Below, in pieces: positions 8,049 through 58,708 of a stretch of DNA of 64,000 nucleotides. Made by a program: the position numbers and the translations under genes. Source of the DNA: Caldisericia bacterium (GTDB taxonomy: Bacteria > Caldisericota > Caldisericia > JAAYUI01); the NCBI GenBank assembly GCA_963674785.1, contig OY771555.1, positions 2,144,001 through 2,208,000 on the forward strand, in the 5' to 3' direction. The notes beneath the pieces were generated by a model, which was not told the DNA's origin, ran no database searches, and saw only the letters and a program-made list of their open reading frames with translations. The first letter of the stretch is position 1; each line of letters opens with the position of its first letter.

Positions 8049-9301
8049 GTAAATACATAATCAAAGGTGGAAACCCCCTAAAAGGATCAGTAGAAATAAA
8101 GGGTGCGAAAAACTCTGCAATGCCGATTATTACTGCTTGTTGCCTCATAAAAGACAAGGTTGTTTTAAGAAATATCCCAACAAAAAATGATCCGATTCAC
8201 CTCATCCATATGCTAGAAGATATCGGCGTAAAAGTCACAAGGTTGGATGAAAACTCCTGGGAAATAAACGCAAAAGGAAAACTTGAATCAGACATCAATG
8301 GGGACAAAGAAAACAGAATCAGGGGAAGTCAAACGATGCTTGGTGCGATGCTTGCCAGAAATGGAGAGGTCACACTCAAATCTCCCGGAGGATGCAACAT
8401 CGGTTCAAGACCAATGGATATCCACCTTAAAGGTTTTGAAGCTCTCGGAACAGAGGTAACCACATGCCCCGATAGAATCCAAATCAAAGCAGCAAATGGC
8501 TTAAAGGGAACAGACATAAAACTCGGGTTTCCATCTGTTGGGGCAACCGAAAATCTCATGATTGCTGCAAGCATGGCAAACGGACAAACAATCCTTTCAA
8601 ATTGTGCAAGAGAACCAGAAATAACAGATTTGGCAGATTTCTTAAATTCATGTGGTGCAAAAATCGCGGGAGCTGGAACAGACACAATCAAAATTGAAGG
8701 TGTCGACAGTTTCCATTCAACTGATTACACAATTATTTCTGACCGGATAGAGGCTGGAACATACGTTATCGCAGCAGCAATAACTAAGGGAGATGTTTCA
8801 ATTCACGGAGTTGACCCATCATTCGTCGACGCATTGATAATAAAACTCCAAGAAATAGGTGTAAAAGTCAAAACAAACAATAAAGAAATTAAGGTTCAAG
8901 GCATCGAAAAAGTTCAATCAATCAACATAAAAACGCTTCCTTACCCTGGGTTTCCAACTGATCTGCAACCACAGATGGCAAGCCTACTATCACTTGCTAA
9001 CGGTACTTCAATCATGACCGAAACCATCTTTGAAAACAGGTTTGCAGCTGTCCCCGAACTCAACAAGATGGGTGCAAACATAAAACTCGACGGAAAAACA
9101 ATCCGAATCGAGGGTGCAAAAAAACTGACTGGAACGACAGTAAAAGCTCACGACCTTAGAGGCGGAGCAAGTCTTGTGTTGGCAGCACTTGTTGCCGATG
9201 GTGAAACAATTGTTGAGGATGTGGAACATATTGAGCGAGGATATGACGGATTCCACGAAAAACTGCTCTCTCTTGGGGCAGATATCAGAAGGGTTGAATA
9301 A
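8045..9301 (+). CDS. murA: UDP-N-acetylglucosamine 1-carboxyvinyltransferase
   Basis: GAKNS, PGGCNIGSRP, SVGATEN, DRIEAGT, YPGFPTDLQ, DLRGG; TTG start overlapping wecB TGA. Confidence 0.97.
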   Translation: MSKYIIKGGNPLKGSVEIKGAKNSAMPIITACCLIKDKVVLRNIPTKNDPIHLIHMLEDIGVKVTRLDENSWEINAKGKLESDINGDKENRIRGSQTMLGAMLARNGEVTLKSPGGCNIGSRPMDIHLKGFEALGTEVTTCPDRIQIKAANGLKGTDIKLGFPSVGATENLMIAASMANGQTILSNCAREPEITDLADFLNSCGAKIAGAGTDTIKIEGVDSFHSTDYTIISDRIEAGTYVIAAAITKGDVSIHGVDPSFVDALIIKLQEIGVKVKTNNKEIKVQGIEKVQSINIKTLPYPGFPTDLQPQMASLLSLANGTSIMTETIFENRFAAVPELNKMGANIKLDGKTIRIEGAKKLTGTTVKAHDLRGGASLVLAALVADGETIVEDVEHIERGYDGFHEKLLSLGADIRRVE

Positions 9302-9304
9302 ACC

Positions 9305-10735
9305 ATGAAATTATCGGAGCTTCCAAAGAAATCAAAAATTCACATGATCGCAATTGGTGGGACAGGGATGAGAGCATTGGCAATAATCCTTCACCAGATG
9401 GGACACATCGTCTCAGGATCAGATATAAATACTGAAAATGATTCTGTCAGAAATCTTAGAGAGCTAGGAATAAACGTATATCATGGGCACGATGAAAAAA
9501 ATCTTGATAACCCAGATATCGTAATAAGGTCTGCAATCATCCCCGACAATAATCCAGAGGTTTCAAAAGCAACAGAGCTTAAAATCCCAGTTATCAATCG
9601 AACAGATGCGGTTACAGAGCTTGCAAACACAAAAAGAATCTTTGCAGTAGCCGGATCACATGGAAAATCAACGGCAACAAGTATGCTCGTCCATATCCTG
9701 AAAAAAGAGAATATTCCATTCTCCTGGTACTACGGCTCACAACTAAAAGACGGTTCTGCTGAAGCATATTGGGATAGTAATTCTGAGTGGCTTATACTGG
9801 AAACCGATGAATCCGATCATGGTTTCATTAGATACAATACTACAATTGGAACAGTTTTATGTATCGACCCTGAACATATGGAGTTCTATGATTTTGATTT
9901 CAACAATCTCCTCGGGGAGTTCAGTGACTTCATCGAGAAATCTGTAAGCAATCATGGTGTCCAAATTCTCTCTTTCGACGACCTGAACACAAACAAGATT
10001 TTTGATAAGTGTCAAAACCTAATCACGTTTGGCAAACAAGATGGTGCCGACCTTAGGTTTGATGGCCCAGTTTTCAAAATTATTGATGGGAAGATGGGTT
10101 CATCGTCAAAAATCTCCTTCAAAGGCAGAGAATTCGGAATGCTTGAATTAACTGTACCTGGTGAACATAACATCCAAAACGCACTATCAGCGGTTGCAGG
10201 GGCAGCACAATTTGGAATATCCCTTCTGGACTCAATCTCTGACCTGAAAGACTACCCGGGTCTCAAAAGAAGAATTGAGCAGCTTGGTAATACTAACGAG
10301 CACATCATGTTTGATGATGATGCAGGACATCCAAGTGAGCTTTCTGCAGGAATAAAAACACTGAAACAATATTTTCCTGACAGACCATTGTGTATCATTC
10401 ATCAACCAGTCAGGTTCTCAAGGGTTTATTACCTTGCAGATGAATATGCAAAAGTCATTAATGAATTGCTTGATAAAAATGACAGGTATATCGCCTCACC
10501 AGCACACGCTTCTGATGAGAATAAATGGGGAGTTGATAAAAACGGCATCTCAAACACAGTAAAGAACCTGAATCCACAGTGCCACGTTGAGGTTTTGGAT
10601 AGTTCTGACGAGATAATACCTACCATAAACAGAGACCTTAAAAAAGGTGAGATAATCTTCTTCTCCGGTCATCCACCAAACATCATAAGAAATAAAGCAT
10701 TTGAGTTTTGTGACGATTTGAAAAATAATAAATAA
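9305..10735 (+). CDS. murC: UDP-N-acetylmuramate--amino acid ligase, MurC family (divergent substrate pocket)
   Basis: IGGTGMRALA, GSHGKST, ETDESD, PGEHNIQNA, GLKRR; C-terminal motifs atypical (DDDAGHP, HQPVRFSR). Confidence 0.8.
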   Translation: MKLSELPKKSKIHMIAIGGTGMRALAIILHQMGHIVSGSDINTENDSVRNLRELGINVYHGHDEKNLDNPDIVIRSAIIPDNNPEVSKATELKIPVINRTDAVTELANTKRIFAVAGSHGKSTATSMLVHILKKENIPFSWYYGSQLKDGSAEAYWDSNSEWLILETDESDHGFIRYNTTIGTVLCIDPEHMEFYDFDFNNLLGEFSDFIEKSVSNHGVQILSFDDLNTNKIFDKCQNLITFGKQDGADLRFDGPVFKIIDGKMGSSSKISFKGREFGMLELTVPGEHNIQNALSAVAGAAQFGISLLDSISDLKDYPGLKRRIEQLGNTNEHIMFDDDAGHPSELSAGIKTLKQYFPDRPLCIIHQPVRFSRVYYLADEYAKVINELLDKNDRYIASPAHASDENKWGVDKNGISNTVKNLNPQCHVEVLDSSDEIIPTINRDLKKGEIIFFSGHPPNIIRNKAFEFCDDLKNNK

Positions 10736-18648: not shown

Positions 18649-19131
18649 TCACTGGTCATTAGTGTCGGGTTGAGTTTCAAGGAAAAACATGATTATCACA
18701 AGAAGAACCGCAGCGACAACAATCCCCATGTCTGCAACGTTGAAGACCGGAAAATCGATAAAATCGACATGAATAAAATCGACAACGAATCCTCTTGTAA
18801 TTCTATCGAGAAGATTACCGACAGCCCCACCCAAAATCATACCAATCGTTACACTCGTCCATTTATCCTTAACGATCTTCGGTATGAAAATAATAATCAG
18901 AACGATGATTAGAACTGCCAATCCAGCAAAAATCATGTTACTGCCCTGTGCAAGCCCCCAAATAGTTCCATAGTTGTGAACTTTCACAGCAGAAACAACA
19001 CCAGGAATCAAAGGAAAACTCTGTCCGAGTTTCAATCCGTGTGAGACAATTATCTTTGACAGTTGATCAAGAAAAAGTACAATTCCACAAGATATTACTA
19101 ACCTCAAAAAAAGATTTTTCGGGATTTTCAT
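18649..19131 (-). CDS. lspA: Lipoprotein signal peptidase II
   Basis: DQLSK, HNYG, GGAVGNLLDR, VVDFI, FNVAD. Confidence 0.96.
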   Translation of the reverse strand: MKIPKNLFLRLVISCGIVLFLDQLSKIIVSHGLKLGQSFPLIPGVVSAVKVHNYGTIWGLAQGSNMIFAGLAVLIIVLIIIFIPKIVKDKWTSVTIGMILGGAVGNLLDRITRGFVVDFIHVDFIDFPVFNVADMGIVVAAVLLVIIMFFLETQPDTNDQ

Positions 19132-19152
19132 ATTATTTAATAATTTGTTCTA

Positions 19153-19665
19153 TTATTCAACAGATTCAGCTTCAGTATCTGAAATAGAAGTGTCTATTGG
19201 GGTTGATGTAGAATCAATATGTTCCTGTGTTTTTTCCTGAAGTGAAGAGTCCATATTATCAAGCAGATTCAAAAAGGTTGAGAGATACGCTCGAAACTCA
19301 CTTTTAAACTCAAGATATGCACCGGATATAGATCTCATCATCTGCTTTGTTTCCGTCAACTGCTGTTCAGCCTTTGACTTCGCATTCAGAACAATCAAGT
19401 CAGCTTCAGCCCGGGCATTGTTTTTTACTTCTTCAGCAGTTTTTTGAGCAAGAGTTAAAGCTTGTTCAAGCTGTCTTCCAGTTGATCTATATCTATCAAC
19501 CTCCTCGGTAAGCCTTTCGACTTTTTCCTGGAGCTCTTTATTATCTCTATAAAGCTGAGAAAAATCCTTTTCAACCTGCATCAGAAATTCCTGAACTTCC
19601 TGCTTGTTGAAACCAGATACACCGCTTTTAAACGTCTTATGTTGTATATCAAGAGGTACTAGCAT
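19153..19665 (-). CDS. divIVA: DivIVA domain protein
   Basis: PLDIQHKTF...GFNKQEVQEFL followed by coiled coil; upstream TTGACA-16-TAGAAT and SD. Confidence 0.9.
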   Translation of the reverse strand: MLVPLDIQHKTFKSGVSGFNKQEVQEFLMQVEKDFSQLYRDNKELQEKVERLTEEVDRYRSTGRQLEQALTLAQKTAEEVKNNARAEADLIVLNAKSKAEQQLTETKQMMRSISGAYLEFKSEFRAYLSTFLNLLDNMDSSLQEKTQEHIDSTSTPIDTSISDTEAESVE

Positions 19666-19733
19666 TTTTTATTTAAACCCCCTTATCCATAATTATTCTA
19701 TACACGTGAGAAATACTGTCAAGTGGCTGATTT

Positions 19734-21053
19734 CTAGATTTTCAGCTTCGGGTCAAGTGCATCTCTTAATCCATCACCCAAGAAATTGAATGCCAGAACA
19801 ACAAGTGCAATCACAATTCCAGGGACAAGCCAAACATGTGGCGAATCAAGAGCATGTTGAAATCCATCGTTGATCATTGAGCCCCAAGAAGGCATAGGTG
19901 GTCTAACACCGATCCCAAGAAACGATAATCCAGCTTCAGACATAATTGCACCAGCAATTCCAAGTGAAACATATACAATTATTGGCGCAAGCATATTTGG
20001 TAAGAGGTGTCTAAGAATTATTCGTTTGTTTTTTGCACCAATTGCCTTTGCAGCCTCAACAAATTCTGATTCCTTAAGAGCAACTACCTCGCCACGAATA
20101 ATCCTTACAATCGGAGGCCATCCAACAAGACCCAGTGCAATAAAAACGTTAAACAAGTCTCGACCAAGAACAGCCATAACGGCAATCGCAAAAAGTAATC
20201 CCGGGAATGCAAACATTATATCAGTAAACCTCGATATAACAGAATCGATCCAGCCACCATAAAAACCTGCCAATGCGCCAAGCGTAATGCCGATAATCAA
20301 TGAGATCAATATTACAACGATACCAACATAAAGAGAAATCCTCGCTCCATGAACTAGTCTTTGGGCAATATCTCGTCCTGCGTTATCAGTCCCAAGAATT
20401 GGTCTTTTCATTGGTCCAGATTCTATTTCAGTTGAGATTAAATCAGATGCTCCTTTTGGGTGAAGTCTCTTGTTTCCAGACTCAACATCAACAACGACAT
20501 ATGCAACACCTAAATCTTCCCACTCGACATCAACGAGCTCACCTGAGACAACTTCTTTAGAGTTCTTTGTATGTTTTCCAAGGGAATCATATCTATACCA
20601 ATGTTCCATCACAAGAACGGATTTTGTTGATCTGAACGTATATAAATCATCAGCTTCACCAATAATCTCATAACCAGGTGGAAGCGACTTACTATTCAAG
20701 GGAACAAATTCAGTTTTTCCATCAGGAAGTTTTATCTCAAGAGCATTTCCAAGTTTTTCGAACAATACATTTTCTGATCTCTTGCCAACAATTTTATAAT
20801 ACGATTCTTCAGAATCAGATACTTCATAGATATATTTTTTAGTTTCAAATTGATCCTTTGATTTTGCAGCATAAACCTGTTTCATTGGAGGAATTAATGT
20901 TGCATCAAGATTCATTGAATATGGATCAGGTGCAATGACGTCTGCAAAAAGAGAAACAATAATCATTAAAAGGATTATAGATAATCCGATAACCGCCAAC
21001 TTATGTCTGAAAAGTCGTCTAAAAACAGTTCTATTGAATTTCTTTTGCGTCAT
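19734..21053 (-). CDS. Peptide ABC permease OppC/DppC type with large extracytoplasmic insertion
   Basis: LGTDNAGRD, GARISL, EFVEAAKAIGA, RHLLPN, LGDGLRDALDP. Confidence 0.92.
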   Translation of the reverse strand: MTQKKFNRTVFRRLFRHKLAVIGLSIILLMIIVSLFADVIAPDPYSMNLDATLIPPMKQVYAAKSKDQFETKKYIYEVSDSEESYYKIVGKRSENVLFEKLGNALEIKLPDGKTEFVPLNSKSLPPGYEIIGEADDLYTFRSTKSVLVMEHWYRYDSLGKHTKNSKEVVSGELVDVEWEDLGVAYVVVDVESGNKRLHPKGASDLISTEIESGPMKRPILGTDNAGRDIAQRLVHGARISLYVGIVVILISLIIGITLGALAGFYGGWIDSVISRFTDIMFAFPGLLFAIAVMAVLGRDLFNVFIALGLVGWPPIVRIIRGEVVALKESEFVEAAKAIGAKNKRIILRHLLPNMLAPIIVYVSLGIAGAIMSEAGLSFLGIGVRPPMPSWGSMINDGFQHALDSPHVWLVPGIVIALVVLAFNFLGDGLRDALDPKLKI

Positions 21054-48837: not shown

Positions 48838-50079
48838 TTACTCTTTGATCCCTGCCCAAACGGCAACAAGTTCATCGTCGATAGTTTCAAAACAAACTGA
48901 GAGAGGTATATCCAAAGGGAATCTTAATTCCAGTTTGTCGTTCCCCGCAGGAAGCCAAATTCCAATATTTGATTCAAAGGATCCGTTTTTAATCTCTGGA
49001 ATCCCTGCAAACCCAAGACCTTCACTCCAGGTAAAAGTTTGTGCATTTTTACCAGAGGTGACGAGTGTTATTCCGAACACCCCAGAGTACTCATCAACTA
49101 TGACATCATTTGGAAATTCATCTATCTCAATACTCGAAACAACCTTACTATCAAGTAAAGAAAAAATTGCCAACTCAAAACCAGTTTCTGTACAAATGGC
49201 TGCGGCTATTTTTTCGTCACCAATGAAGTCGAGAGCACATACATCACCCTTGATATAATTGAACGCACCGAGAGCCCATTTCCCTTCCCATAAAACTACT
49301 GGCTCTTTTGTGTTTTCAAAAACCTTTATAGATTGAATTCCTTCATCAGAAATATAGTTTTCAATCTCGATATCATTTTTGTTGCAGAACAGAAATCTAA
49401 TCTCAGCATCATTTGATTTGTCTTGCACGTATTTTTCACTCGTGTTTTCAATTCTTGGAAGAAAATCCCACTTTGGTTGTGTTTTGTACCAGTTCGACTC
49501 AGACAGTCCCAATATTGGATCGGACTTTGTGCCAAGTGTGCAAACACCATGTCTGCCATCACCATCATTACAAACTGCAAGAGCAACAACATCTGAATAG
49601 ATAATACCATCTTCAAATCCAGCAAGTGGAAGTATCTTATTCCAATCACCCGTTAATGGAGTCTCTTCCAAGTCAAATGTTTTAATATCTCCACTTTTAA
49701 TATCAGCTATGAAACAAATCGATTGAATTGAATCAGGAAGAGATCTGATTCTGAAACCATGGTCAGGAACTCCAGGATTGATCTCTTCAACCCTTTCACG
49801 TTCAGTATTCATTTTTATGGTAAAAAGATTGTTATGACCTTCGGAAACCTCAATATCGGAAACATTGGGAAGGAAACCAACCGATTCAACTCTCACATTA
49901 TATATTCCAGGATCAAGGATATATTCCTCGACCGGGACATCTATCTTCTCACCATTCAGAAAAACACTAGCATCAGACTGGTCAATCAGTAGGGTAAGAC
50001 TTGTTTGGTCACCACATGAGATGACCAAACAAGTAGTAATCAAAAGGACAATCGATAATATTACTTTGTTTCGAACCAT
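48838..50079 (-). CDS. PEGA-domain lipoprotein
   Basis: Lipobox VISC; ASVFLNG...LDPGIYNVRVESVGF PEGA-like motif; unknown C-terminal region. Confidence 0.7.
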   Translation of the reverse strand: MVRNKVILSIVLLITTCLVISCGDQTSLTLLIDQSDASVFLNGEKIDVPVEEYILDPGIYNVRVESVGFLPNVSDIEVSEGHNNLFTIKMNTERERVEEINPGVPDHGFRIRSLPDSIQSICFIADIKSGDIKTFDLEETPLTGDWNKILPLAGFEDGIIYSDVVALAVCNDGDGRHGVCTLGTKSDPILGLSESNWYKTQPKWDFLPRIENTSEKYVQDKSNDAEIRFLFCNKNDIEIENYISDEGIQSIKVFENTKEPVVLWEGKWALGAFNYIKGDVCALDFIGDEKIAAAICTETGFELAIFSLLDSKVVSSIEIDEFPNDVIVDEYSGVFGITLVTSGKNAQTFTWSEGLGFAGIPEIKNGSFESNIGIWLPAGNDKLELRFPLDIPLSVCFETIDDELVAVWAGIKE

Positions 50080-51482
50080 TCCAGGAAAGCCGCATATTCG
50101 TTTGAATAATTCTTGTCACCAATTATAAGCTTGATTGTGTAGAAATGATCATTATTCATATAAGTGGTGTAAATCATTGTTTTCTCGCCATCTTCAACTT
50201 TATATTGAAGTGCATCTTTTGTCCCAAGTTTTACATTTTTGGTTTCAGAAATTGATAATTGTGGATCAGTTTTATATATCTCTTGAATACCACCAAGAGT
50301 TAAACCCGCATAACTTAAAGCTGACTGTACATCGATTGCAATAAATGATCCATTTCCATCAGGAGGATTGATAAATGATGCCATCTCTGAGACCTCTTCA
50401 TAATTCCATCCCATTGGAAGAACGATTTTAAATCTATCATTATCAATCGTGTCTCCTTTTCTCACAACTGGATTATCGATTGGGTCAACATCAACATTAT
50501 TATTCTGGTTCTGATTCGAAGTATTATTTCCATCATCTGATCCATTGTTGTTATCTGATATAGCATCGGGGTCATTTTCAGGAATGTAATTGAAGGAGGA
50601 GATAATCTCAGAAATTGTTTCTTGATCGAGTTCAGAAGAAATATAAATCTTTATAAGCTGTCCATTTGTCAAAAGAAAATACTCTTCAGATATATTTTCA
50701 AATGTTACCAGCTCACCAACAGATTTCTTGTTGCCAATTGAATCGTCATTCAAATCAGTAAGGTATTCAAAAAGAGCGTCGGTTGCTTCAGGATTGAACT
50801 CCTCAGATTTTACAAAATCAATCTGTATCAATTCATTCCCATCTGAATTTAGGAATTTAACCTGATCATCGGTTTTTTCAATCTCCCAGTTTGAATGATA
50901 CTTAAATTTCCAATATCCCTGATCGTATGTCTGAACGGTCCACTCAACAGGTTGTTGTTTTTGGGCAATCCAGTTTGATAAATTTACTGAAACACTGGTG
51001 AAGATTAATTCCGCAGTATCAAGCTCAGATTTCTTATACTTACCAGGTTGTAATTGAGAAAGGTAGATTGCTCCATCTATCGGGCTAAACATTATAATCC
51101 CCCTCCCTCCATTCTCATCTTTGATTCTGAAAAGATTCGAGGGAAGTGGATTGTTTGTTGAGTTAACCATTAACTCAACTTCTTTTTCTTCAAGTTTTTC
51201 GTATCCGCCAAGCTTTGCATTCATAAAAGCTTCGATTTTTGAAAGATCACCCAATTCAGAGTCTTCGTTCTCAATTGCGTCAAACTGAAGCATTACACCT
51301 TCAAAAACAAGCTTTGTACTATATTCATCTTCAACAACATCCCAGGATTCGGGATACCCAATGGTTAGATATTTTCCATCATACTCTTTTGTAAGTTCAG
51401 GTATTGAAGAACCACACGAAACAACAATCGACAAAACTACAAGCAAGGTTAATACCAATGTCAAATTTTTCCTAAGTCGCAT
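50061..51482 (-). CDS. Lipoprotein with three PsbP/DcrB-like modules
   Basis: Lipobox VVSC; modules start LTIGYPESW, WKFKYHSNW, FKIVLPMGW; Asn/Asp-rich linker. Confidence 0.7.
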   Translation of the reverse strand: MRLRKNLTLVLTLLVVLSIVVSCGSSIPELTKEYDGKYLTIGYPESWDVVEDEYSTKLVFEGVMLQFDAIENEDSELGDLSKIEAFMNAKLGGYEKLEEKEVELMVNSTNNPLPSNLFRIKDENGGRGIIMFSPIDGAIYLSQLQPGKYKKSELDTAELIFTSVSVNLSNWIAQKQQPVEWTVQTYDQGYWKFKYHSNWEIEKTDDQVKFLNSDGNELIQIDFVKSEEFNPEATDALFEYLTDLNDDSIGNKKSVGELVTFENISEEYFLLTNGQLIKIYISSELDQETISEIISSFNYIPENDPDAISDNNNGSDDGNNTSNQNQNNNVDVDPIDNPVVRKGDTIDNDRFKIVLPMGWNYEEVSEMASFINPPDGNGSFIAIDVQSALSYAGLTLGGIQEIYKTDPQLSISETKNVKLGTKDALQYKVEDGEKTMIYTTYMNNDHFYTIKLIIGDKNYSNEYAAFLEWFETK

Positions 51483-51527
51483 TCACAGCTCCTTCCGCTG
51501 ATTTATTAACAGAAAACATCAGCAGGG

Positions 51528-52037
51528 TCAAGGCACAGGTGTATCAAGAACTTGATTTATTTTTAACGAAGCCAATATGTCTTCGAGTTCTTTTTCTATC
51601 CGATTCTCCATATTTGCGTATGTGAAAAAATAGATATCTGGGGCAACAGAAAAAAAGAAGTTGTATGTCGTTGTATTCTGAGTAATTTCAACCATTGGAA
51701 AAGATAAATCACCAAACTTAACTTCTTCTGGACTGGACGCATTTTCCAGACCCTCAAAAACACTATTTGCATAATCCATCGCTGTCATATCTATCCCACT
51801 AATCAAACTAACGACAAGAACTGAATGGTTATGATAAGTAGAATTAGACTTGATCAAAATTGAATTTGATTCACCTTCTTCGGAAGTGACCGTCCAATCA
51901 ACTGGTCTATCAAAGGAAATCCCTTCAAATATTTGTTCTGTTACTTGAAGCTCTGTATCGACACTTGCAGTCTGCCCACACGAAACCATTGAGAACAAAA
52001 CAAATAAAATGACTCCGACATTGAAAAATCTTCTCAC
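51528..52037 (-). CDS. Lipoprotein, one PsbP/DcrB-like module
   Basis: Lipobox MVSC; ISFDRPVDW...ILASLKI; GTGA-coupled to upstream gene. Confidence 0.7.
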   Translation of the reverse strand: MRRFFNVGVILFVLFSMVSCGQTASVDTELQVTEQIFEGISFDRPVDWTVTSEEGESNSILIKSNSTYHNHSVLVVSLISGIDMTAMDYANSVFEGLENASSPEEVKFGDLSFPMVEITQNTTTYNFFFSVAPDIYFFTYANMENRIEKELEDILASLKINQVLDTPVP

Positions 52038-52633
52038 TTTTTCACCACTATGGAATCAAGTAAACCTTGCAAGTTGAAACCTGAAGCGGGAACCTCAGAA
52101 ATAATACTTATCAGAAGAATATTTTCATCGCCAATATCTGAGACCAGCTGCCACAAAAAGTTTTCAAATTCCGCCCCCTGAACAAGACCTCTTACTTCAA
52201 AAAACATCAGACCATTCTTATTTGAGAGGGTTCTCATTTCTGGATTCATAATAGTTGACGATGTTAATGTTGTATATTTCTTTGAGTTCAGGTAACCATG
52301 AGTATCAATTAGTTGGAGAGAAATCCCTGAAATTTCCACATTATCGATATTTGATGGATATATTGAGACCGAATTATCATTTTTATCACTTATAAACCAT
52401 CCCGATGGAATCTCAAAACCTAAAAAATCATTTTCAAAAAAGCCATCTGAATCATTTGTTTGAAAATCCTTAGCGGATAATTCAGTTTCAATTTGTGAAC
52501 TTTTATTCTCAACATTCTCATCAGTTGTTTCCTGCTTATTGCCCTGTCCACAGGAAACAAAAGCAAGCAAAAGACTCAAAACCAAAATCGTGGAGAGAAT
52601 CTTCGTTGATTTACTCATTATTTTATTCCTCAC
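52034..52633 (-). CDS. Lipoprotein, one PsbP/DcrB-like module
   Basis: Lipobox FVSC; FENDFLGFEIPSGW...LLDSIVVK. Confidence 0.7.
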   Translation of the reverse strand: MRNKIMSKSTKILSTILVLSLLLAFVSCGQGNKQETTDENVENKSSQIETELSAKDFQTNDSDGFFENDFLGFEIPSGWFISDKNDNSVSIYPSNIDNVEISGISLQLIDTHGYLNSKKYTTLTSSTIMNPEMRTLSNKNGLMFFEVRGLVQGAEFENFLWQLVSDIGDENILLISIISEVPASGFNLQGLLDSIVVKK

Positions 52634-53640
52634 TTCAATTCAATTGATTCAATAATCTTCGTTGCTCCCTCAGGGATAGTGTTTGAAACAGTTACCAGCG
52701 AAACCATAATTTGATTTGTTGAATCAATACTTGTTATCAGATGATGCTCAAAGTAGGTATTATGGGATGATTGAATTACCTGATACTTTATCCCTCCATA
52801 CTGAGAGGTTCTTTTTTTGCCGTTTGTCTGGGATTGAATTCCAGCAACAAAATCATCAAAGGTTATCGTATCACCTAAATCAACATACTGGATAGAAAAG
52901 GATAGAACATCTAGATTGCTACCAATTTTAGGTTCTAAAACAGTCACCCTTGAATCATCAGATGTCAATTCCCATTCTTTCGGGATTGTAAACTTTAGGT
53001 GTTCATTCTCAAACAACTCATCCTTTGAGGAATCAGTTTCAATATTCCCATTATTGTCAGGAATATTTTCCTGATCTTCTGTTAAAGTGTTTTCATCATT
53101 CGAGTTGTTACCCTCAAGGGCAACATCATTGTTGTTTTCTATTTCTTTTTGAAGGAAGAAATCTGGATTAGTAACCTCAAATGTTTTTATTATATTGTAA
53201 GCAAGGTCAAAACCAGATTTTGAGTTGGGAGTTGGCGCAGTGTAAACATTTACAATATAAAAATCCAGGGGCGAGAGAAGAACAATACCCTTCCCTTTTT
53301 CGGTATCACCAGTGATGATAACTCCCGAGGTTATTTCTTCTAGTTTGTATTCTTTCAACCCGCTTTTAATGGAATCTGTTTTCGATTCAATGCTTTTAAA
53401 GCTACCCTCGCGCGCAGCGGCAAAGGGTTCAACATCAATATTAATCGTAAAATCGTTCCCCTTTATGATTCCACCACTCTCTAATTTTGAGGTTGAAAAA
53501 CCAGTCGGGTAATCTATCTTGAAGAAATCGCCACTCATTGTATTTTCAAACTTCAGTTCAACCTTCTCTGTACATGAGACAAACATCAAAACCAAAACGA
53601 GAAGGAACGAAAGCGAAATCCTTTTTATCTCTTTCATCAT
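52630..53640 (-). CDS. Lipoprotein, two PsbP/DcrB-like modules
   Basis: Lipobox FVSC; FFKIDYPTGF...IIKTFEVTNPDF, acidic linker, LKFTIPKEW...IIESIELK. Confidence 0.7.
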   Translation of the reverse strand: MMKEIKRISLSFLLVLVLMFVSCTEKVELKFENTMSGDFFKIDYPTGFSTSKLESGGIIKGNDFTINIDVEPFAAAREGSFKSIESKTDSIKSGLKEYKLEEITSGVIITGDTEKGKGIVLLSPLDFYIVNVYTAPTPNSKSGFDLAYNIIKTFEVTNPDFFLQKEIENNNDVALEGNNSNDENTLTEDQENIPDNNGNIETDSSKDELFENEHLKFTIPKEWELTSDDSRVTVLEPKIGSNLDVLSFSIQYVDLGDTITFDDFVAGIQSQTNGKKRTSQYGGIKYQVIQSSHNTYFEHHLITSIDSTNQIMVSLVTVSNTIPEGATKIIESIELK

Positions 53641-53711
53641 TTTATATGTTTCTACCCCTATCTCTCCAATTTACTTCATTATAGTAGAAAATAATCACTA
53701 GTTCCATAAAT

Positions 53712-53744
53712 AAAAATACCCGACAGAAATCTGTCGGGTATTTT
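53712..53744. terminator. Symmetric intrinsic terminator inside lipoprotein array
   Basis: AAAATACCCGACAGA-AA-TCTGTCGGGTATTTT perfect inverted repeat. Confidence 0.85.
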
Positions 53745-53771
53745 CCATAAGGACTTTATGTAGCGAAAGTA

Positions 53772-54839
53772 TTACTTTAAGTAGTCTGGTTTTGTAATAC
53801 TGAAAGAATCAAGCATTGACCGGAAAGTTTCTTTATCTCCACCTATTTCAGATCCCTCAGAGGTTCCCATTATAAGTATCCACCAACCATCCATTTCGAT
53901 TATACAATTTGAAACAAGCGCTTCACCCATACTCATTTCAAATAGATTTGCATCTCTTCCAGAAACCTTAATCTTTTCAACACCAAGTTCTTCTTCTGCT
54001 GATACACTCTCATTCTCTTTAGATGCCATTATGGTAACATTGAGTTTGTCAATTGTGAACATAACCATGTCATCGTCACCATAACTAAAATCCATGACCT
54101 CGGCTGAAGATGGATGCTTCACAGTGAAATAGTTTCCAGTATAAAGCTCGTCAAGCTTTCTTCCATCTGAGGAGCTACTTGGTTTATTATCGACGTCTTT
54201 CTCATCAGCAGCATTTGATTTATTGATATCTTCATCCTCTACTGGATGCTCAGCTTCATCCTTATTGGAATAGTCAACTTCTTTTTCTATTGGTTTATCC
54301 GATATATCTTTGTCAGAATTGGTCATCTCCGAGAAAAAATCGGAATCTGTAATTTTAAATGATCTTACAATTTGTCTTGACATCTCAACAATATTTGCAT
54401 CATCAACCGGTTTTCTCACACTATCTATTATTATCCACTTCTCCATAGGAATAAGAACCATTACACCATGGAGACCCTTATTATCACCCTCAATCCAAAG
54501 CGCTTTATGTCCATCAATTGTTACAGTTTTTTTTGACAGATTCTCAACTTCTTCTTCAATGCCTTCAATAAACATATCAAGAGAACTAATATCACCCTTT
54601 TTAGCATCTACAAATGGGATTCCAGCTACTTCAACCTCGAGTCCAGATTTGCTATCAGTCAAAACAGCTCCGTACTCGGTTTCTTTGGCTGAAAAATCAT
54701 ATGTACAATCTATCGTAAAGTATTTACCAGTAAAAGTATTGTTTAAATCTGCCTTTACTGCCTGTTCTCCACCACCACAAGATACTAGAGCCGATAATAC
54801 TAAAAAACAAACGACAAGAAACGCAAAAGTCTTTTTCAT
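53772..54839 (-). CDS. Lipoprotein, two PsbP/DcrB-like modules
   Basis: Lipobox LVSC; FTGKYFTI...IVRSFKITDSDF, acidic linker, YTGNYFTVKHP...LDSFSITKPDY. Confidence 0.7.
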   Translation of the reverse strand: MKKTFAFLVVCFLVLSALVSCGGGEQAVKADLNNTFTGKYFTIDCTYDFSAKETEYGAVLTDSKSGLEVEVAGIPFVDAKKGDISSLDMFIEGIEEEVENLSKKTVTIDGHKALWIEGDNKGLHGVMVLIPMEKWIIIDSVRKPVDDANIVEMSRQIVRSFKITDSDFFSEMTNSDKDISDKPIEKEVDYSNKDEAEHPVEDEDINKSNAADEKDVDNKPSSSSDGRKLDELYTGNYFTVKHPSSAEVMDFSYGDDDMVMFTIDKLNVTIMASKENESVSAEEELGVEKIKVSGRDANLFEMSMGEALVSNCIIEMDGWWILIMGTSEGSEIGGDKETFRSMLDSFSITKPDYLK

Positions 54840-54892
54840 AAATTCCTCTTTTTTTCATTGAATTTTTTCAAACTACTCGACATAAATCTAAT

Positions 54893-55861
54893 TCATTTCG
54901 CCCCAAAATGCAAACTGTCCAGTAACTCAATACTCAAAATATCATCAGCCGCTCTTTTGATGGAATCTGCATCAATCATACCGGTAACAGACACAAGAAC
55001 GTAACCACCTTCAAATGGAATCGTAAGACTTATTGATTTCTTCTTTTCTTTAAGAGTCTCAGACCAGAATGCTGCCATTCCATCAACTTCTATCTCCATC
55101 ACAACCTGGGAGCCGAGGTCAAAGCCTTCCCAATCCTGCATCTTTGAAACATATTGTAACTCACCGAAATGTGATTTCCAATCATCAATATGAACAACAT
55201 TTATTTGGTATTCATCACATTTAAGTTTTGTAATGCTGTCATTACTCGATTTCTCTTCGCAATCAGATCTCAATGTTATCGCCCCGATTTTGTGAATTTC
55301 ATCTGAAAACTCTGGTTTCTGGGATAGATCATATGCTTCATATACTGCTCCCTCAAATGGGATTTCAAAATCTGGATCTGTAAGCCTCAGAGAAAAAAGT
55401 ACAGTCTTTGCAAGATCATAGTCAGATTCATCAAATCCCGATGCAGTACCAATTAACTCCCAACCATTTTTTGGTATAGTAACAGACATAAACGGCCATT
55501 CGTATTCATCTTTTGTGTAACAGAACAAAGCATTTTCTTCTCCAAGTTGAACCTCAGTGAGCTCATCCCAGAAATCCTCACCATTATGCCAAAGTCTGTA
55601 AGTGTCACCATTCCTACAGTTGTCATTCCAATTTGCATATGTTTCAATAAGCATTTTCGAATCCTTTGAAGAAATTATCACACCTGGATTTACATCACCA
55701 ATTTTTATTGGTGAAAAACCATCCGGATAATCCATAGAAAAAAAATCGTTAGCAAAGGTTCTCTCAAGGATGATTCCAGGTGTCGATTCGCTGGGCATAC
55801 TACAAGATGCAAATGAAACCAGTAGCGCAATGTAAATAAATAAATGGATTGTTTTTTTCAT
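54893..55861 (-). CDS. Lipoprotein, two PsbP/DcrB-like modules
   Basis: Lipobox FASC; NDFFSMDYPDGF...DLAKTVLFSLRLTDPDF; second module ends ILSIELLD. Confidence 0.7.
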   Translation of the reverse strand: MKKTIHLFIYIALLVSFASCSMPSESTPGIILERTFANDFFSMDYPDGFSPIKIGDVNPGVIISSKDSKMLIETYANWNDNCRNGDTYRLWHNGEDFWDELTEVQLGEENALFCYTKDEYEWPFMSVTIPKNGWELIGTASGFDESDYDLAKTVLFSLRLTDPDFEIPFEGAVYEAYDLSQKPEFSDEIHKIGAITLRSDCEEKSSNDSITKLKCDEYQINVVHIDDWKSHFGELQYVSKMQDWEGFDLGSQVVMEIEVDGMAAFWSETLKEKKKSISLTIPFEGGYVLVSVTGMIDADSIKRAADDILSIELLDSLHFGAK

Positions 55862-56358
55862 TTTATTGTCACCGTTTTGATTATTCTATGTCCAAGAGCA
55901 AGATCATCTCGAACTTGAGGGTTTATCTGAACATACAAAACCATATCATCGAGTGGGATATAATATCCAAAAACCTCAATAATATCGGTTAGAGTTGTCC
56001 CAGAAAAAGTACAACCTTCATAGTATAGAGATTTGACACCACCAATTTTTTTCGTTTCTATATCAGGCTCAGGCATTCCTTTGGTGACCTTCAAATATCT
56101 TTCTTTGACTGCCAATGTATCACCTTTTTTGAGCTTCTTGTATTCGAGCATCTGGAAAACCATCATAGGATTTGGGTTACCAGTCTCAGAAACGAAAACA
56201 TCAGTACCATCGACCTCATTTACTTCAAAAAGCGAAGGATACTCAAAACCAAAAAAATCATTCTCATAGGTTTTTTCAAAATGCGTGGTACCACACGCAA
56301 GCTGTGTAACCAAAGCCAAAAGAAGTATAAGAAGGAATAGACCTCTAATTTTTCTCAT
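55858..56358 (-). CDS. Lipoprotein, one PsbP/DcrB-like module (first gene of array)
   Basis: ATG 56358; lipobox QLAC; YENDFFGFEYPSLF...IPLDD...IIKTVTIK. Confidence 0.7.
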   Translation of the reverse strand: MRKIRGLFLLILLLALVTQLACGTTHFEKTYENDFFGFEYPSLFEVNEVDGTDVFVSETGNPNPMMVFQMLEYKKLKKGDTLAVKERYLKVTKGMPEPDIETKKIGGVKSLYYEGCTFSGTTLTDIIEVFGYYIPLDDMVLYVQINPQVRDDLALGHRIIKTVTIK

Positions 56359-56504
56359 AAAGAATGGATACAACGAGACTTTCATTTTGTCAACAGAAAA
56401 TTCGAAGACTAAATCAAGATTAACATCGTTCTGGAGTACAACCCCTTGTCAAGATTATTTAAAATGATATGCTTTGACTATTCAATTACTCAAGGAGGAA
56501 TGGC

Positions 56505-57704
56505 ATGAATTCTCAGGATTATATCAACTTAGAGAAGCAGTATGGTGCAAGCAACTACGAATCACTTGAAGTGGTATTGTCAAAAGGTGAAGGTGTCTGG
56601 GTTTGGGATGTAGAAGGAAAGAAATATATGGACATGCTCAGTGCATATTCAGCGGTTAACCATGGTCACAGACACCCAAAAATCATCGGTGCAATGACAG
56701 AACAAATGAACAGGATCACCTTAACCTCCAGAGCTTTCTTCAATGACAGACTTCCTGAGTTTTGCAAAACTGTTTCAGAGTTTACAGGCAAAGAAATGTT
56801 CCTCCCAATGAACACAGGCGCAGAAGGCGTAGAAACCGGAATCAAGGCTATGCGTAAGTGGGGATATGAAGTAAAAGGTATCGAAGCAGAAAGAGGCGAG
56901 ATAATCGTTTTCGAGAATAACTTCCATGGTAGAACAACCACAATTGTAAGTTTCTCAACTGACGAAAACGCACACAATAACTTTGGTCCATTCACACCAG
57001 GGTTTGTGATTGTTCCATACAACGATCTTGATGCAATCAAAAATGCAATTACCGACAAAACAATCGGCATCCTGATTGAGCCAATTCAAGGTGAAGCAGG
57101 AATAAATGTTCCAGATGATGGTTACCTCAGAGGAATCAGAGAAATTTGTGACAAACACAACATACTCTTTGCCGCTGATGAAATCCAGACAGGTTTCGGA
57201 AGAACAGGAAAACGTTTCTGTGTTGACCATGAAGGCGTTGAACCAGACCTCTTTATCCTTGGAAAAGCTCTCGGTGGTGGAGTATTCCCAGTGTCTGGGG
57301 TTGCTGCAAACAAAGATATTCTCGGTGTTTTCAAAAAAGGGCAGCATGGATCAACGTTTGGTGGAAACCCACTCGGATCAATTGTGGGAAAAACCTCAAT
57401 TGAAGTTCTCCAGGATGAAAAACTAATTGAAAGATCAGCTGAGCTTGGTGAATATTTCATGGGTAAACTCAAAACCCTCATCGGTGATGTCATCGAGAAT
57501 GTCCGAGGAAAAGGTCTTCTTATCGGAATCGATATTAAACCATCAGCCGGTGCCGCACACGACTACGTCGTAAAGCTTCGTGACGCAGGAATCATCGCAA
57601 AAGAAACACATGATACAATCATCAGATTTGCCCCACCACTTGTTATCACAAAAGAAGAGCTTGACTGGGCATTTGAAATCGTTAAAAAAGTCTTTGTAAA
57701 ATAG
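56505..57704 (+). CDS. rocD: Ornithine--oxo-acid transaminase
   Basis: DMLSAYSAVNHGH, PMNTGAEGVET, NFHGRT, EPIQGEAG, DEIQTG, GKALGGG, HGSTFGGNPL. Confidence 0.95.
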   Translation: MNSQDYINLEKQYGASNYESLEVVLSKGEGVWVWDVEGKKYMDMLSAYSAVNHGHRHPKIIGAMTEQMNRITLTSRAFFNDRLPEFCKTVSEFTGKEMFLPMNTGAEGVETGIKAMRKWGYEVKGIEAERGEIIVFENNFHGRTTTIVSFSTDENAHNNFGPFTPGFVIVPYNDLDAIKNAITDKTIGILIEPIQGEAGINVPDDGYLRGIREICDKHNILFAADEIQTGFGRTGKRFCVDHEGVEPDLFILGKALGGGVFPVSGVAANKDILGVFKKGQHGSTFGGNPLGSIVGKTSIEVLQDEKLIERSAELGEYFMGKLKTLIGDVIENVRGKGLLIGIDIKPSAGAAHDYVVKLRDAGIIAKETHDTIIRFAPPLVITKEELDWAFEIVKKVFVK

Positions 57705-57731: not shown

Positions 57732-57760
57732 AAGTGGGGCACTTCGTGCCCCACTTTTTT
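57732..57760 (+). terminator. Intrinsic terminator of rocD
   Basis: AAGTGGGGCAC-TTC-GTGCCCCACTT followed by T-tract. Confidence 0.9.
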
Positions 57761-57790: not shown

Positions 57791-58288
57791 ATGAAACGAA
57801 TACTTGTGCTGTTATTGGTCTTGGTTCTTTTTGTTTCCTGCTCAGGAAAACCGTATAATCCACCCAAAGAGCTTGTTTTTTCTGAAACAACATACCTATA
57901 CAAAGTCTATTATCCAAAGGGCTGGGAGGCTACAACGGGTGTAAATGGCAGTTGTGCAATCTCATTTATGACTGACAAAATCACAATTCCATTTGTAATC
58001 GCAGTTGATGAGAATGTAAAAGCTAACGACCTTGATAGCATCAGCGAATTCACAGACATACTCAAAAGCAGCAATCCCAATGGAAAGACAGAAGTAAAAA
58101 AGATTTCTGGGAAAAAATCAATGTGGTGGTATTTCGACATCATGGGAGTCGAACTGGCAAGCTTCATTTTGCCTCTTGATGGAGTCATTGTTTCAGCAAT
58201 GATCTGGACAAGACAATCAGAACATATAACAACAGAAAACCTGAAACTGGCAAGAATGGTTGTGGACAGTTTCAGGCTTATTGATTAG
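57791..58288 (+). CDS. Lipoprotein, one PsbP/DcrB-like module (displaced member of array family)
   Basis: ATG 57791; lipobox FVSC; YKVYYPKGW, KKISGKKS, ILPLDG, LARMVVDSFRL. Confidence 0.72.
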   Translation: MKRILVLLLVLVLFVSCSGKPYNPPKELVFSETTYLYKVYYPKGWEATTGVNGSCAISFMTDKITIPFVIAVDENVKANDLDSISEFTDILKSSNPNGKTEVKKISGKKSMWWYFDIMGVELASFILPLDGVIVSAMIWTRQSEHITTENLKLARMVVDSFRLID

Positions 58289-58291
58289 CAA

Positions 58292-58708
58292 TTACTGAAT
58301 AGGTTCAGTTTTACCTCGTTTTTTTTGTTGCCTTAAGACCCACTCTTTCGCTTTTTCAACAGTCGGAAAGATGGGACGAGGATTTCCTGACAGCGTGTCA
58401 TAAAGTTTTGCTGCGATCCTCTCAAGCATATTCGAACATACCGTACAATAATCAATAACATATTTTTTCGAGTTTGGGGCATCAAGCTCTGAAAACCTGT
58501 TGACGTATCTCGGATGCGCCATTCCCATCTCAGAGGTATCAATTATCTGCCAAACCTTTGTATTCCCGCCTTTAAGATACCATTCAAGGTTCTTGTTTGC
58601 TATAAACTCCGCATCATAATTTGATTTTGGTGAACCAATAAACTTACAGAAAAGGATATTGTTCTCTTTATCATAGCTTGCTTCGTATTTAACGACACTA
58701 TCTGGCAT
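58292..58708 (-). CDS. Hypothetical protein, possibly STAS/SEC14 (SpoIIAA-like) fold
   Basis: 138-aa ORF directly after argS; IIDTSEM...IFPTVEKAKEWV resembles that family's C-terminal motif. Confidence 0.55.
   Translation of the reverse strand: MPDSVVKYEASYDKENNILFCKFIGSPKSNYDAEFIANKNLEWYLKGGNTKVWQIIDTSEMGMAHPRYVNRFSELDAPNSKKYVIDYCTVCSNMLERIAAKLYDTLSGNPRPIFPTVEKAKEWVLRQQKKRGKTEPIQ

Follow-up and report, generated by a model that had tools for sequence, protein, structure and literature searches.

A collinear yet fast-changing array of lipoproteins with PsbP-like modules in a Caldisericia genome

The window analyzed here is a 64,000-nucleotide (nt) stretch of contig OY771555.1 (positions 2,144,001 to 2,208,000 of the forward strand; assembly GCA_963674785.1, Caldisericia bacterium), a genome represented by a single contig of 2,233,174 bp and estimated to be 92% complete. 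Window positions 48838-56385 hold eight consecutive, co-oriented minus-strand open reading frames (ORFs), named G1 to G8 in the order of transcription, every one of which carries a lipobox. G1 to G7 contain 1, 2, 2, 2, 1, 1, and 3 copies, respectively, of a module of ~140 amino acids (aa) that resembles PsbP, or 12 copies in total, and the eighth gene encodes a lipoprotein of a different build. A ninth member of the array, G9, lies outside the span noted earlier, beyond a class-III aminotransferase gene, and supplies a thirteenth module. The features of the locus, in window coordinates, are as follows.

55858-56385 (-), G1: 175 aa from ATG 56385, or 166 aa from ATG 56358, the start being ambiguous; lipobox QLAC; one PsbP-like module.
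54893-55861 (-), G2: 322 aa; lipobox FASC; two PsbP-like modules, directly abutting; its ATG overlaps the G1 stop (ATGA).
53772-54839 (-), G3: 355 aa; lipobox LVSC; two PsbP-like modules with an acidic 52-aa linker between them; module 1 at ~19-173.
53706-53741 (-), terminator-like hairpin in the G3/G4 intergenic gap (131 nt): 11-bp stem, 4-nt loop, -17.9 kcal/mol, with a U-rich run after it.
52630-53640 (-), G4: 336 aa; lipobox FVSC; two PsbP-like modules with an Asn/Asp/Glu-rich linker between them.
52034-52633 (-), G5: 199 aa; lipobox FVSC; a polar tether of ~30 aa, then one module; GTGA overlap with G4.
51528-52037 (-), G6: 169 aa; lipobox MVSC; one module; GTGA overlap with G5.
50061-51482 (-), G7: 473 aa; lipobox VVSC; three modules.
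48838-50079 (-), G8: 413 aa; lipobox VISC; PEGA-like beta-sandwich at ~27-90, then a beta-propeller at ~105-413; 19-nt overlap with G7.
56505-57704, class-III aminotransferase gene.
57732-57756 (+), strong terminator-like hairpin 3' of the aminotransferase gene: 11 pairs, 7 of them G-C.
57791-58288 (+), G9: lipoprotein with one module; lipobox FVSC; the full ORF is 184 aa and opens at 57734.

A previous interpretation made from the sequence without database searches, here called the sequence-only reading, had described much of this architecture, and most of its description was borne out. The eight lipoboxes read exactly as quoted there, the estimate of about 12 modules in seven ORFs agrees with the 12 counted in G1 to G7, and the N-termini of G1 to G8 consist of a basic n-region, a hydrophobic stretch, and the lipobox. 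The quoted xxGD motifs are present (SELGDL in G7, AKKGDI in G3, CRNGDT in G2, and LKKGDT in G1), as are the hydrophobic-P motifs SPIDG, SPLDF, IPMEK, and IPLDD and the tails TDPDF, TDSDF, and TNPDF. Linkers reported as rich in Asn, Asp, and Glu contain 44-57% of these residues in G3, G4, and G7, versus 22% overall. Overlapping genes had also been reported; there are four such overlaps, three of 4 nt (ATGA at G1/G2 and GTGA at G4/G5 and G5/G6) and one of 19 nt (G7/G8).

Transcription of the array probably proceeds in two units, G1-G3 and G4-G8, and G9 would be transcribed on its own. The division between G3 and G4 is drawn because the gap between them holds the terminator-like hairpin, its U-rich run, and a TATAAT-like hexamer downstream of that run; this hairpin was absent from the output of a separate consensus terminator scan. 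Because the aminotransferase terminator at 57732-57756 overlaps the 5' end of the long G9 ORF, the start of G9 is most likely ATG 57791.

The modules are highly diverged from each other. All-versus-all alignment, which the sequence-only reading had proposed as a check, links some pairs by BLAST (most strongly G3m1-G4m1 at 3e-13, G2m1-G4m1 at 3e-7, G4m2-G5 at 3e-6, and G3m1-G9 at 3e-5, where m1 and m2 denote modules 1 and 2) but not every pair, and it is profiles that join the family. An independent hidden Markov model (HMM) built from 74 modules of ten related genomes, with nothing from this genome and with Z set to 2000, recovers all 13 window modules at E values from 2e-34 to 1e-4, with no match in G8 and none in 180 shuffled copies. 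Even an HMM from two other genera alone (39 modules) recovers 12 of the 13, missing G6 and finding G5 and G7m2 marginally. At the DNA level, repeats of only 21-46 nt remain, located at the lipobox and the first strand motif. The duplications are therefore old, as had been proposed, and the module tree described below agrees.

Standard annotation names none of these proteins, as had been claimed. None of the nine window proteins passes a Pfam or NCBIfam cut-off, NCBIfam returned chance matches at the signal-peptide level only, and the named close homologues, all from "Caldisericia bacterium," are labeled "hypothetical protein." The gathering cut-offs of the curated Pfam families PsbP_2 (PF18933) and PsbP (PF01789) are passed by none of the nine; the sole PsbP_2 hint in the window is G6 (E 5.2e-4, 20.5 bits, below the cut-off of 27), and PsbP_2 is matched at E <= 0.01 in 3 of 90 modules collected for the family. 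The window proteins likewise lack the combination of Pfam match and N-terminal lipobox that would place them in the DcrB family (PF08786), and they do not have the character of DUF1795/Eag effector chaperones, which are cytoplasmic and encoded beside an effector of a type VI secretion system (T6SS).

Profile searches reach further. A profile of the 13 window modules, run against 1.84 billion representative proteins, gave 122 matches at E <= 1e-3. A Pfam scan of these found PsbP_2, PsbP, or DcrB at E <= 0.01 in 43, of which 27 pass the curated cut-off, while none of the closest 46 lies above a PsbP-type Pfam cut-off. Against PDB sequences the 13-module profile gave insignificant matches (PsbP, E 0.13), and significance was reached only with the 90-module profile, which matched plant PsbP (1v2b) with an E value of 6.8e-6 along positions 3-134 of the 144 in the profile. 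Four further PsbP chains followed at E <= 0.018, and PnsL1, DcrB, CyanoP, and a DUF1795 protein at E 0.14-0.46.

Predicted structure agrees with the profiles. One of the 13 modules, G3m1, was modeled (AlphaFold2, from the 90-module alignment), and the others are tied to it by profile. The model (predicted local distance difference test [pLDDT] 92; predicted template modeling score 0.85) runs through four short strands, a longer strand, a helix, four strands, and a second helix, and it forms an alpha-beta-alpha sandwich with a central antiparallel sheet that matches PsbP/Mog1 proteins over most of the domain. In a Foldseek search of the PDB, PsbP chains were at the top (E 1.9e-5 to 1e-4, template modeling [TM] score about 0.6), and below them came CyanoP, PnsL1, Apa, Tsi3, BT_1490, Mog1, DcrB, LpqN, and SciW/EagT6. 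A second structure search, independent of Foldseek and covering 48,161 chains, gave its best score to CyanoP (2xb3; 13.2, root-mean-square deviation 2.9 over 134 aligned residues), followed by PsbP chains (11.4-12.6), TplEi (11.7), LpqN (10.6), Mtc28 (10.4), Tsi3 (10.4), Mog1 (10.3), DcrB (9.5), and Apa (8.6), with the next chain at 7.1. By profile and model, the module is a highly diverged domain of the PsbP/Mog1 superfamily, nearer PsbP/CyanoP than DcrB or DUF1795. The sequence-only guess of a PsbP/Mog1/DcrB-type fold is thus backed by two kinds of evidence, and the array is a Pfam-invisible case of PsbP-fold envelope lipoproteins.

The final gene of the minus-strand group, G8, had been called a PEGA lipoprotein. 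The lipobox and a PEGA-like beta-sandwich are present, but the Pfam match to PEGA (PF08308) is below threshold (E 0.0043, 17.4 bits versus a cut-off of 20.8) and about three quarters of the protein is a beta-propeller. In a model from a 15-sequence alignment (pLDDT 89), a signal helix precedes a beta-sandwich at ~27-88, behind which come blades of four strands each, about six by a reading of the strand list; residues ~105-413 match solved propellers in these blades. Foldseek returned 138 matches at E <= 0.001, the top ones with TM scores of only 0.2-0.3; the best was leptospiral Lp49 (E 9.8e-7), then a designed 8-blade propeller, with BamB at rank 3. Atlas hits for G8, which at scores of 0.77-0.83 (below 0.9) are leads only, point to YncE/YVTN propellers and PEGA-plus-propeller architectures. 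Like G8, Lp49 and BamB are lipoproteins with a beta-propeller, and Lp49 places an Ig-like domain before the propeller; neither shows sequence homology to G8.

Close homologues of G8 are confined to the lineage, with six matches including G8 itself, of which the named one is a "hypothetical protein" of Caldisericia bacterium; one homologue, 77% identical and from a closer relative than the congeners, is present as a protein record only. Full-length G8 occurs in all 11 genomes of the family defined by GTDB, and it adjoins the array in the loci of 10 relatives. Profile positions ~25-95, the PEGA part, match many proteins of the class, and in the 30 other class genomes this part is matched and nothing more (full-length G8 in 0 of 30).

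The module profile detects arrays in all 10 other genomes of the family (5-18 module matches each). Outside the family, five of seven genomes from one further family give 1-2 matches, and the 23 genomes from three other families give none. The genus comprises four genomes, this one and the congeners G001, G002, and G003. All three congeners share the order of G1-G8, the aminotransferase gene, and G9, and their module counts for G1 to G7 (1, 2, 2, 2, 1, 1, and 3) are identical as well. The one addition is in G002, where an extra two-module lipoprotein gene (316 aa; G002 locus 8905-9855, +) heads the array. This extra gene has no counterpart in the window, and its modules sit on long tree branches. 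G002 also has a further gene pair beside G9, whose counterpart in the present genome lies ~50 kb away at contig 18681-20369. In the other two genera, arrays of six or seven genes have partly different architectures, and in each locus fetched they end in a G7-like gene followed by a G8 ortholog.

A FastTree phylogeny of the 90 modules places 11 of the 13 window modules with their positional orthologues in congeners, the exceptions being G7m2 and G7m3. Within groups, the branching is mostly alike, in the order G003, G001, and, where present, G002. All three genera are represented in the G7m1 and G9 clades, and modules 1 and 3 of G7 each have a positional counterpart in the other two genera. The tree, which bears on the test for module shuffling that had been proposed, shows no trace of conversion or shuffling inside the genus. 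The proposal of an "undescribed system" also gives way, since the locus is a lineage-specific expansion of a known kind; among the papers listed by literature searches, none describes such an array.

Conservation of layout is not matched by conservation of sequence. Rates were expressed as amino-acid identity to orthologues in the three congeners, and the array proteins gave 33-42% (G1), 35-49% (G2), 30-49% (G3), 30-41% (G4), 26-38% (G5), 32-52% (G6), 29-36% (G7), and 35-45% (G8), with G9 the best-conserved paralogue at 52-67%. For the neighboring genes, the values were 81-86% (tsaD), 88-90% (response regulator), 59-68% (histidine kinase), 82-89% (aminotransferase), and 68% (ArgS), and for three other lipoproteins of the window, taken as controls, 69-74, 48-54, and 67-76%. 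Overall, G1-G8 lie at 26-52% versus 59-90% for flanking genes, so that the array is structurally frozen yet fast-changing in sequence. Synonymous sites are saturated, because even the nearest genomes are only 26-52% identical in the array proteins, and the fast change fits relaxed constraint or positive selection alike.

The envelope in which these proteins would act is apparently rich in lipoproteins and lacking in BAM, the beta-barrel assembly machinery. A lipobox is present in all nine array proteins, and the genome carries two Lgt genes and one LspA gene, so acylation is predicted and the earlier assignment of the proteins as lipoproteins holds. No match to Omp85/BamA was found in this genome or in any of the 41 class genomes searched (34 of them at least 90% complete), in a search whose controls, seven diderms, gave matches. 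Because the class has no such match, the lipoproteins would be expected to stay on the outer face of the cytoplasmic membrane, and a BAM complex is presumably missing from this lineage. A crude pattern search of ORFs of at least 100 aa gave about 144 lipoprotein candidates in the genome, 14 of them PsbP-like and 9 of these at this locus. On the Caldisericota cell envelope, the literature available to us in part yielded nothing beyond phylogenetic placement. The genome's single LspA (signal peptidase II) gene also lies in the window, at 18682-19083 (-), ~30 kb from the array.

Taken together, these results describe a conserved, lineage-specific gene set of a Caldisericia family that probably supplies membrane-tethered, non-redundant docking or scaffold lipoproteins. 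Its members are the eight lipoproteins G1-G7 and G9, carrying 13 diverged PsbP/Mog1-fold modules, and G8, with its PEGA-like domain and beta-propeller. The exported proteins would be processed by Lgt and LspA at the lipobox cysteine and, without Omp85/BamA, would remain acylated on the cytoplasmic membrane's outer face, where polar or acidic tethers and linkers could let the modules extend outward. Each module may then serve, without catalysis, as a surface on which a protein partner docks, or possibly a lipid or glycan, as in characterized members of the fold (PsbP/CyanoP, LpqN, DcrB, Tsi3, and Mog1). The paralogues could combine as subunits into one hetero-oligomeric assembly of the envelope, built around the G8 propeller as hub, or make up a dedicated adaptor set. 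They are regarded as non-redundant because gene order and module number are fixed and orthology is positional.

Comparison with known PsbP-fold proteins fits a docking role while setting this array apart. PsbP and CyanoP bind photosystem II, PnsL binds NDH, and CyanoP is itself a lipoprotein. The 90-module profile matches plant PsbP over the whole domain, and in that alignment the "(F/Y)..G..F.I.YP..W" hairpin with which the module opens, like its "P.DG" turn, falls on the corresponding PsbP segment. Unlike PsbP and CyanoP, however, the module is here multiplied 13-fold, with up to three copies per protein, and no window protein rises above the Pfam cut-offs. Photosystem II cannot be the partner, because Caldisericia are not known to be photosynthetic. 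DcrB is similar in being a PsbP-fold lipoprotein, with a single module, that sits at the outer face of the inner membrane, and the accessible part of one report describes it as a membrane-anchored Mog1p/PsbP-family protein whose group is possibly associated with membrane-anchored complexes (PMC7716261); it differs in that the 90-module profile matches it at an E value of only 0.25.

The mycobacterial proteins LpqN, LpqT, Mtc28, and Apa offer a parallel of another sort, since they are paralogous exported or lipidated PsbP-fold proteins within one genome. Their genes are not known to form one collinear array, and, unlike them, the window proteins have no significant match to Pfam Lpp-LpqN and no MmpL-type partner nearby. 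In the part of the source available to us, LpqN-family lipoproteins are proposed to be accessory or adaptor proteins of membrane complexes, and they interact with MmpL transporters (PMC8427324).

Several points weigh against a docking or scaffold set. The fold says nothing about the ligand, and the neighbors (tsaD, the two-component system, the class-III aminotransferase, and ArgS) offer no functional hint, the two-component system not even being adjacent to the array in G002. The hairpin splits the array and G9 is on the opposite strand, so this is not one strict operon. The monoderm-like placement depends on the absence of one marker family, and the co-distribution of G8 with the array comes from a single lineage and thus amounts to one evolutionary event. 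The high divergence would also fit a role exposed to phages or competitors.

A more ambitious form of the docking interpretation is that all nine lipoproteins make up one hetero-oligomeric machine on the outer face, with PsbP-fold adaptors around a propeller hub, that would serve wall, sheath, or surface-layer assembly and be specific to a family lacking a BAM-type outer membrane. We consider this unlikely, though if it were true the PsbP fold would count as a building block used generally in bacterial envelope complexes, well away from photosynthesis. Short of that, the locus provides nine "hypothetical" genes of a poorly known phylum with a fold, a probable location, and an evolutionary account, and a conserved, non-shuffling array with a fixed partner in G8 is a good place to seek ligands of PsbP modules.

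Among the alternatives, one in which the modules bind envelope lipids or glycolipids and pass them on from membrane transporters, as has been proposed for mycobacterial LpqN, is improbable. It gains from the location of the array proteins, lipoproteins at the membrane surface, and from LpqN itself, a lipoprotein described in the available portion of the literature as binding lipid and interacting with MmpL3 and MmpL11 (PMC8427324). No RND (resistance-nodulation-division)/MmpL or other transporter gene is adjacent, however, and both CyanoP and PsbP outscore LpqN in the structure search.

The sequence-only reading had favored a diversifying surface repertoire, in which exposed adhesins, phage-receptor decoys, or variable antigens would owe their value to sequence diversity. 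Many paralogues, a likely outer-face position in a cell that gave no Omp85 match, and divergence faster than that of the flanking genes and of all three control lipoproteins are what such a repertoire would show. It would not be expected to keep gene order, gene number, and module number the same in all three congeners (one with an extra gene), to cluster its modules by position (11 of 13) without any sign that they were converted or shuffled within the genus, or to lack long DNA repeats able to drive recombination. Since an essentially invariant, one-to-one orthologous array was found, the repertoire interpretation fails on its own terms and is quite improbable; the lineage, known only from environmental genomes and presumably free-living, also counts against it. 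That the locus is not a variable repertoire of immunity proteins or antigens corrects a more exciting reading.

The same report had suggested an immunity-like poly-array, and modules that neutralize secreted peptidoglycan- or lipid-degrading toxins, like Tsi3 or TplEi, would be one form of it. The accessible text of one survey places PsbP/MOG1-like proteins beside T6SS toxins and PsbP/MOG1 domains among the fusion partners of immunity proteins in poly-immunity loci (PMC3482391). Loci of the polymorphic-toxin kind combine an adjacent toxin with variable content, and this locus has neither: the neighbors examined include no gene for a toxin, a secretion system, or a transporter, and the array is collinear in all three congeners, positional in its orthology, and retained across the family. 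Its terminal partner is moreover a beta-propeller lipoprotein and not a toxin, and an immunity role is very unlikely. A set of nutrient or solute capture proteins feeding an uptake system is equally hard to credit, for although many lipoproteins of single-membrane bacteria are substrate-binding proteins and the crude pattern search marked 144 candidate lipoproteins genome-wide, the array adjoins no permease or ATPase gene and the PsbP fold is not among the known solute-binding folds.

Other observations concern the surroundings of the array and the wider genome. A 138-aa ORF at 58292-58708 (-), between G9 and ArgS, is without a Pfam match, and no ortholog of it was seen at the equivalent position of the G001 locus. 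Beyond the array, the genome has five more PsbP-like lipoprotein genes, at contig 18681-20369 (+), 2214187-2215225 (+), and 321240-321758 (-), among unrelated housekeeping genes that give no functional hint. They include a 192/362-aa pair orthologous to the pair that adjoins the G9 ortholog in G002, and this pair has therefore moved in one of the two genomes. The crude pattern search also revealed other tandem groups of paralogous lipoprotein genes: a tandem array at 637319-644944 (+) of four proteins of ~620-650 aa with near-identical signal peptides, a tandem array at 1468971-1474860 (+) of five proteins of ~350-396 aa, and a pair at 674133-678297 (-) of 675-677 aa, whose identical N-termini suggest a recent duplication.

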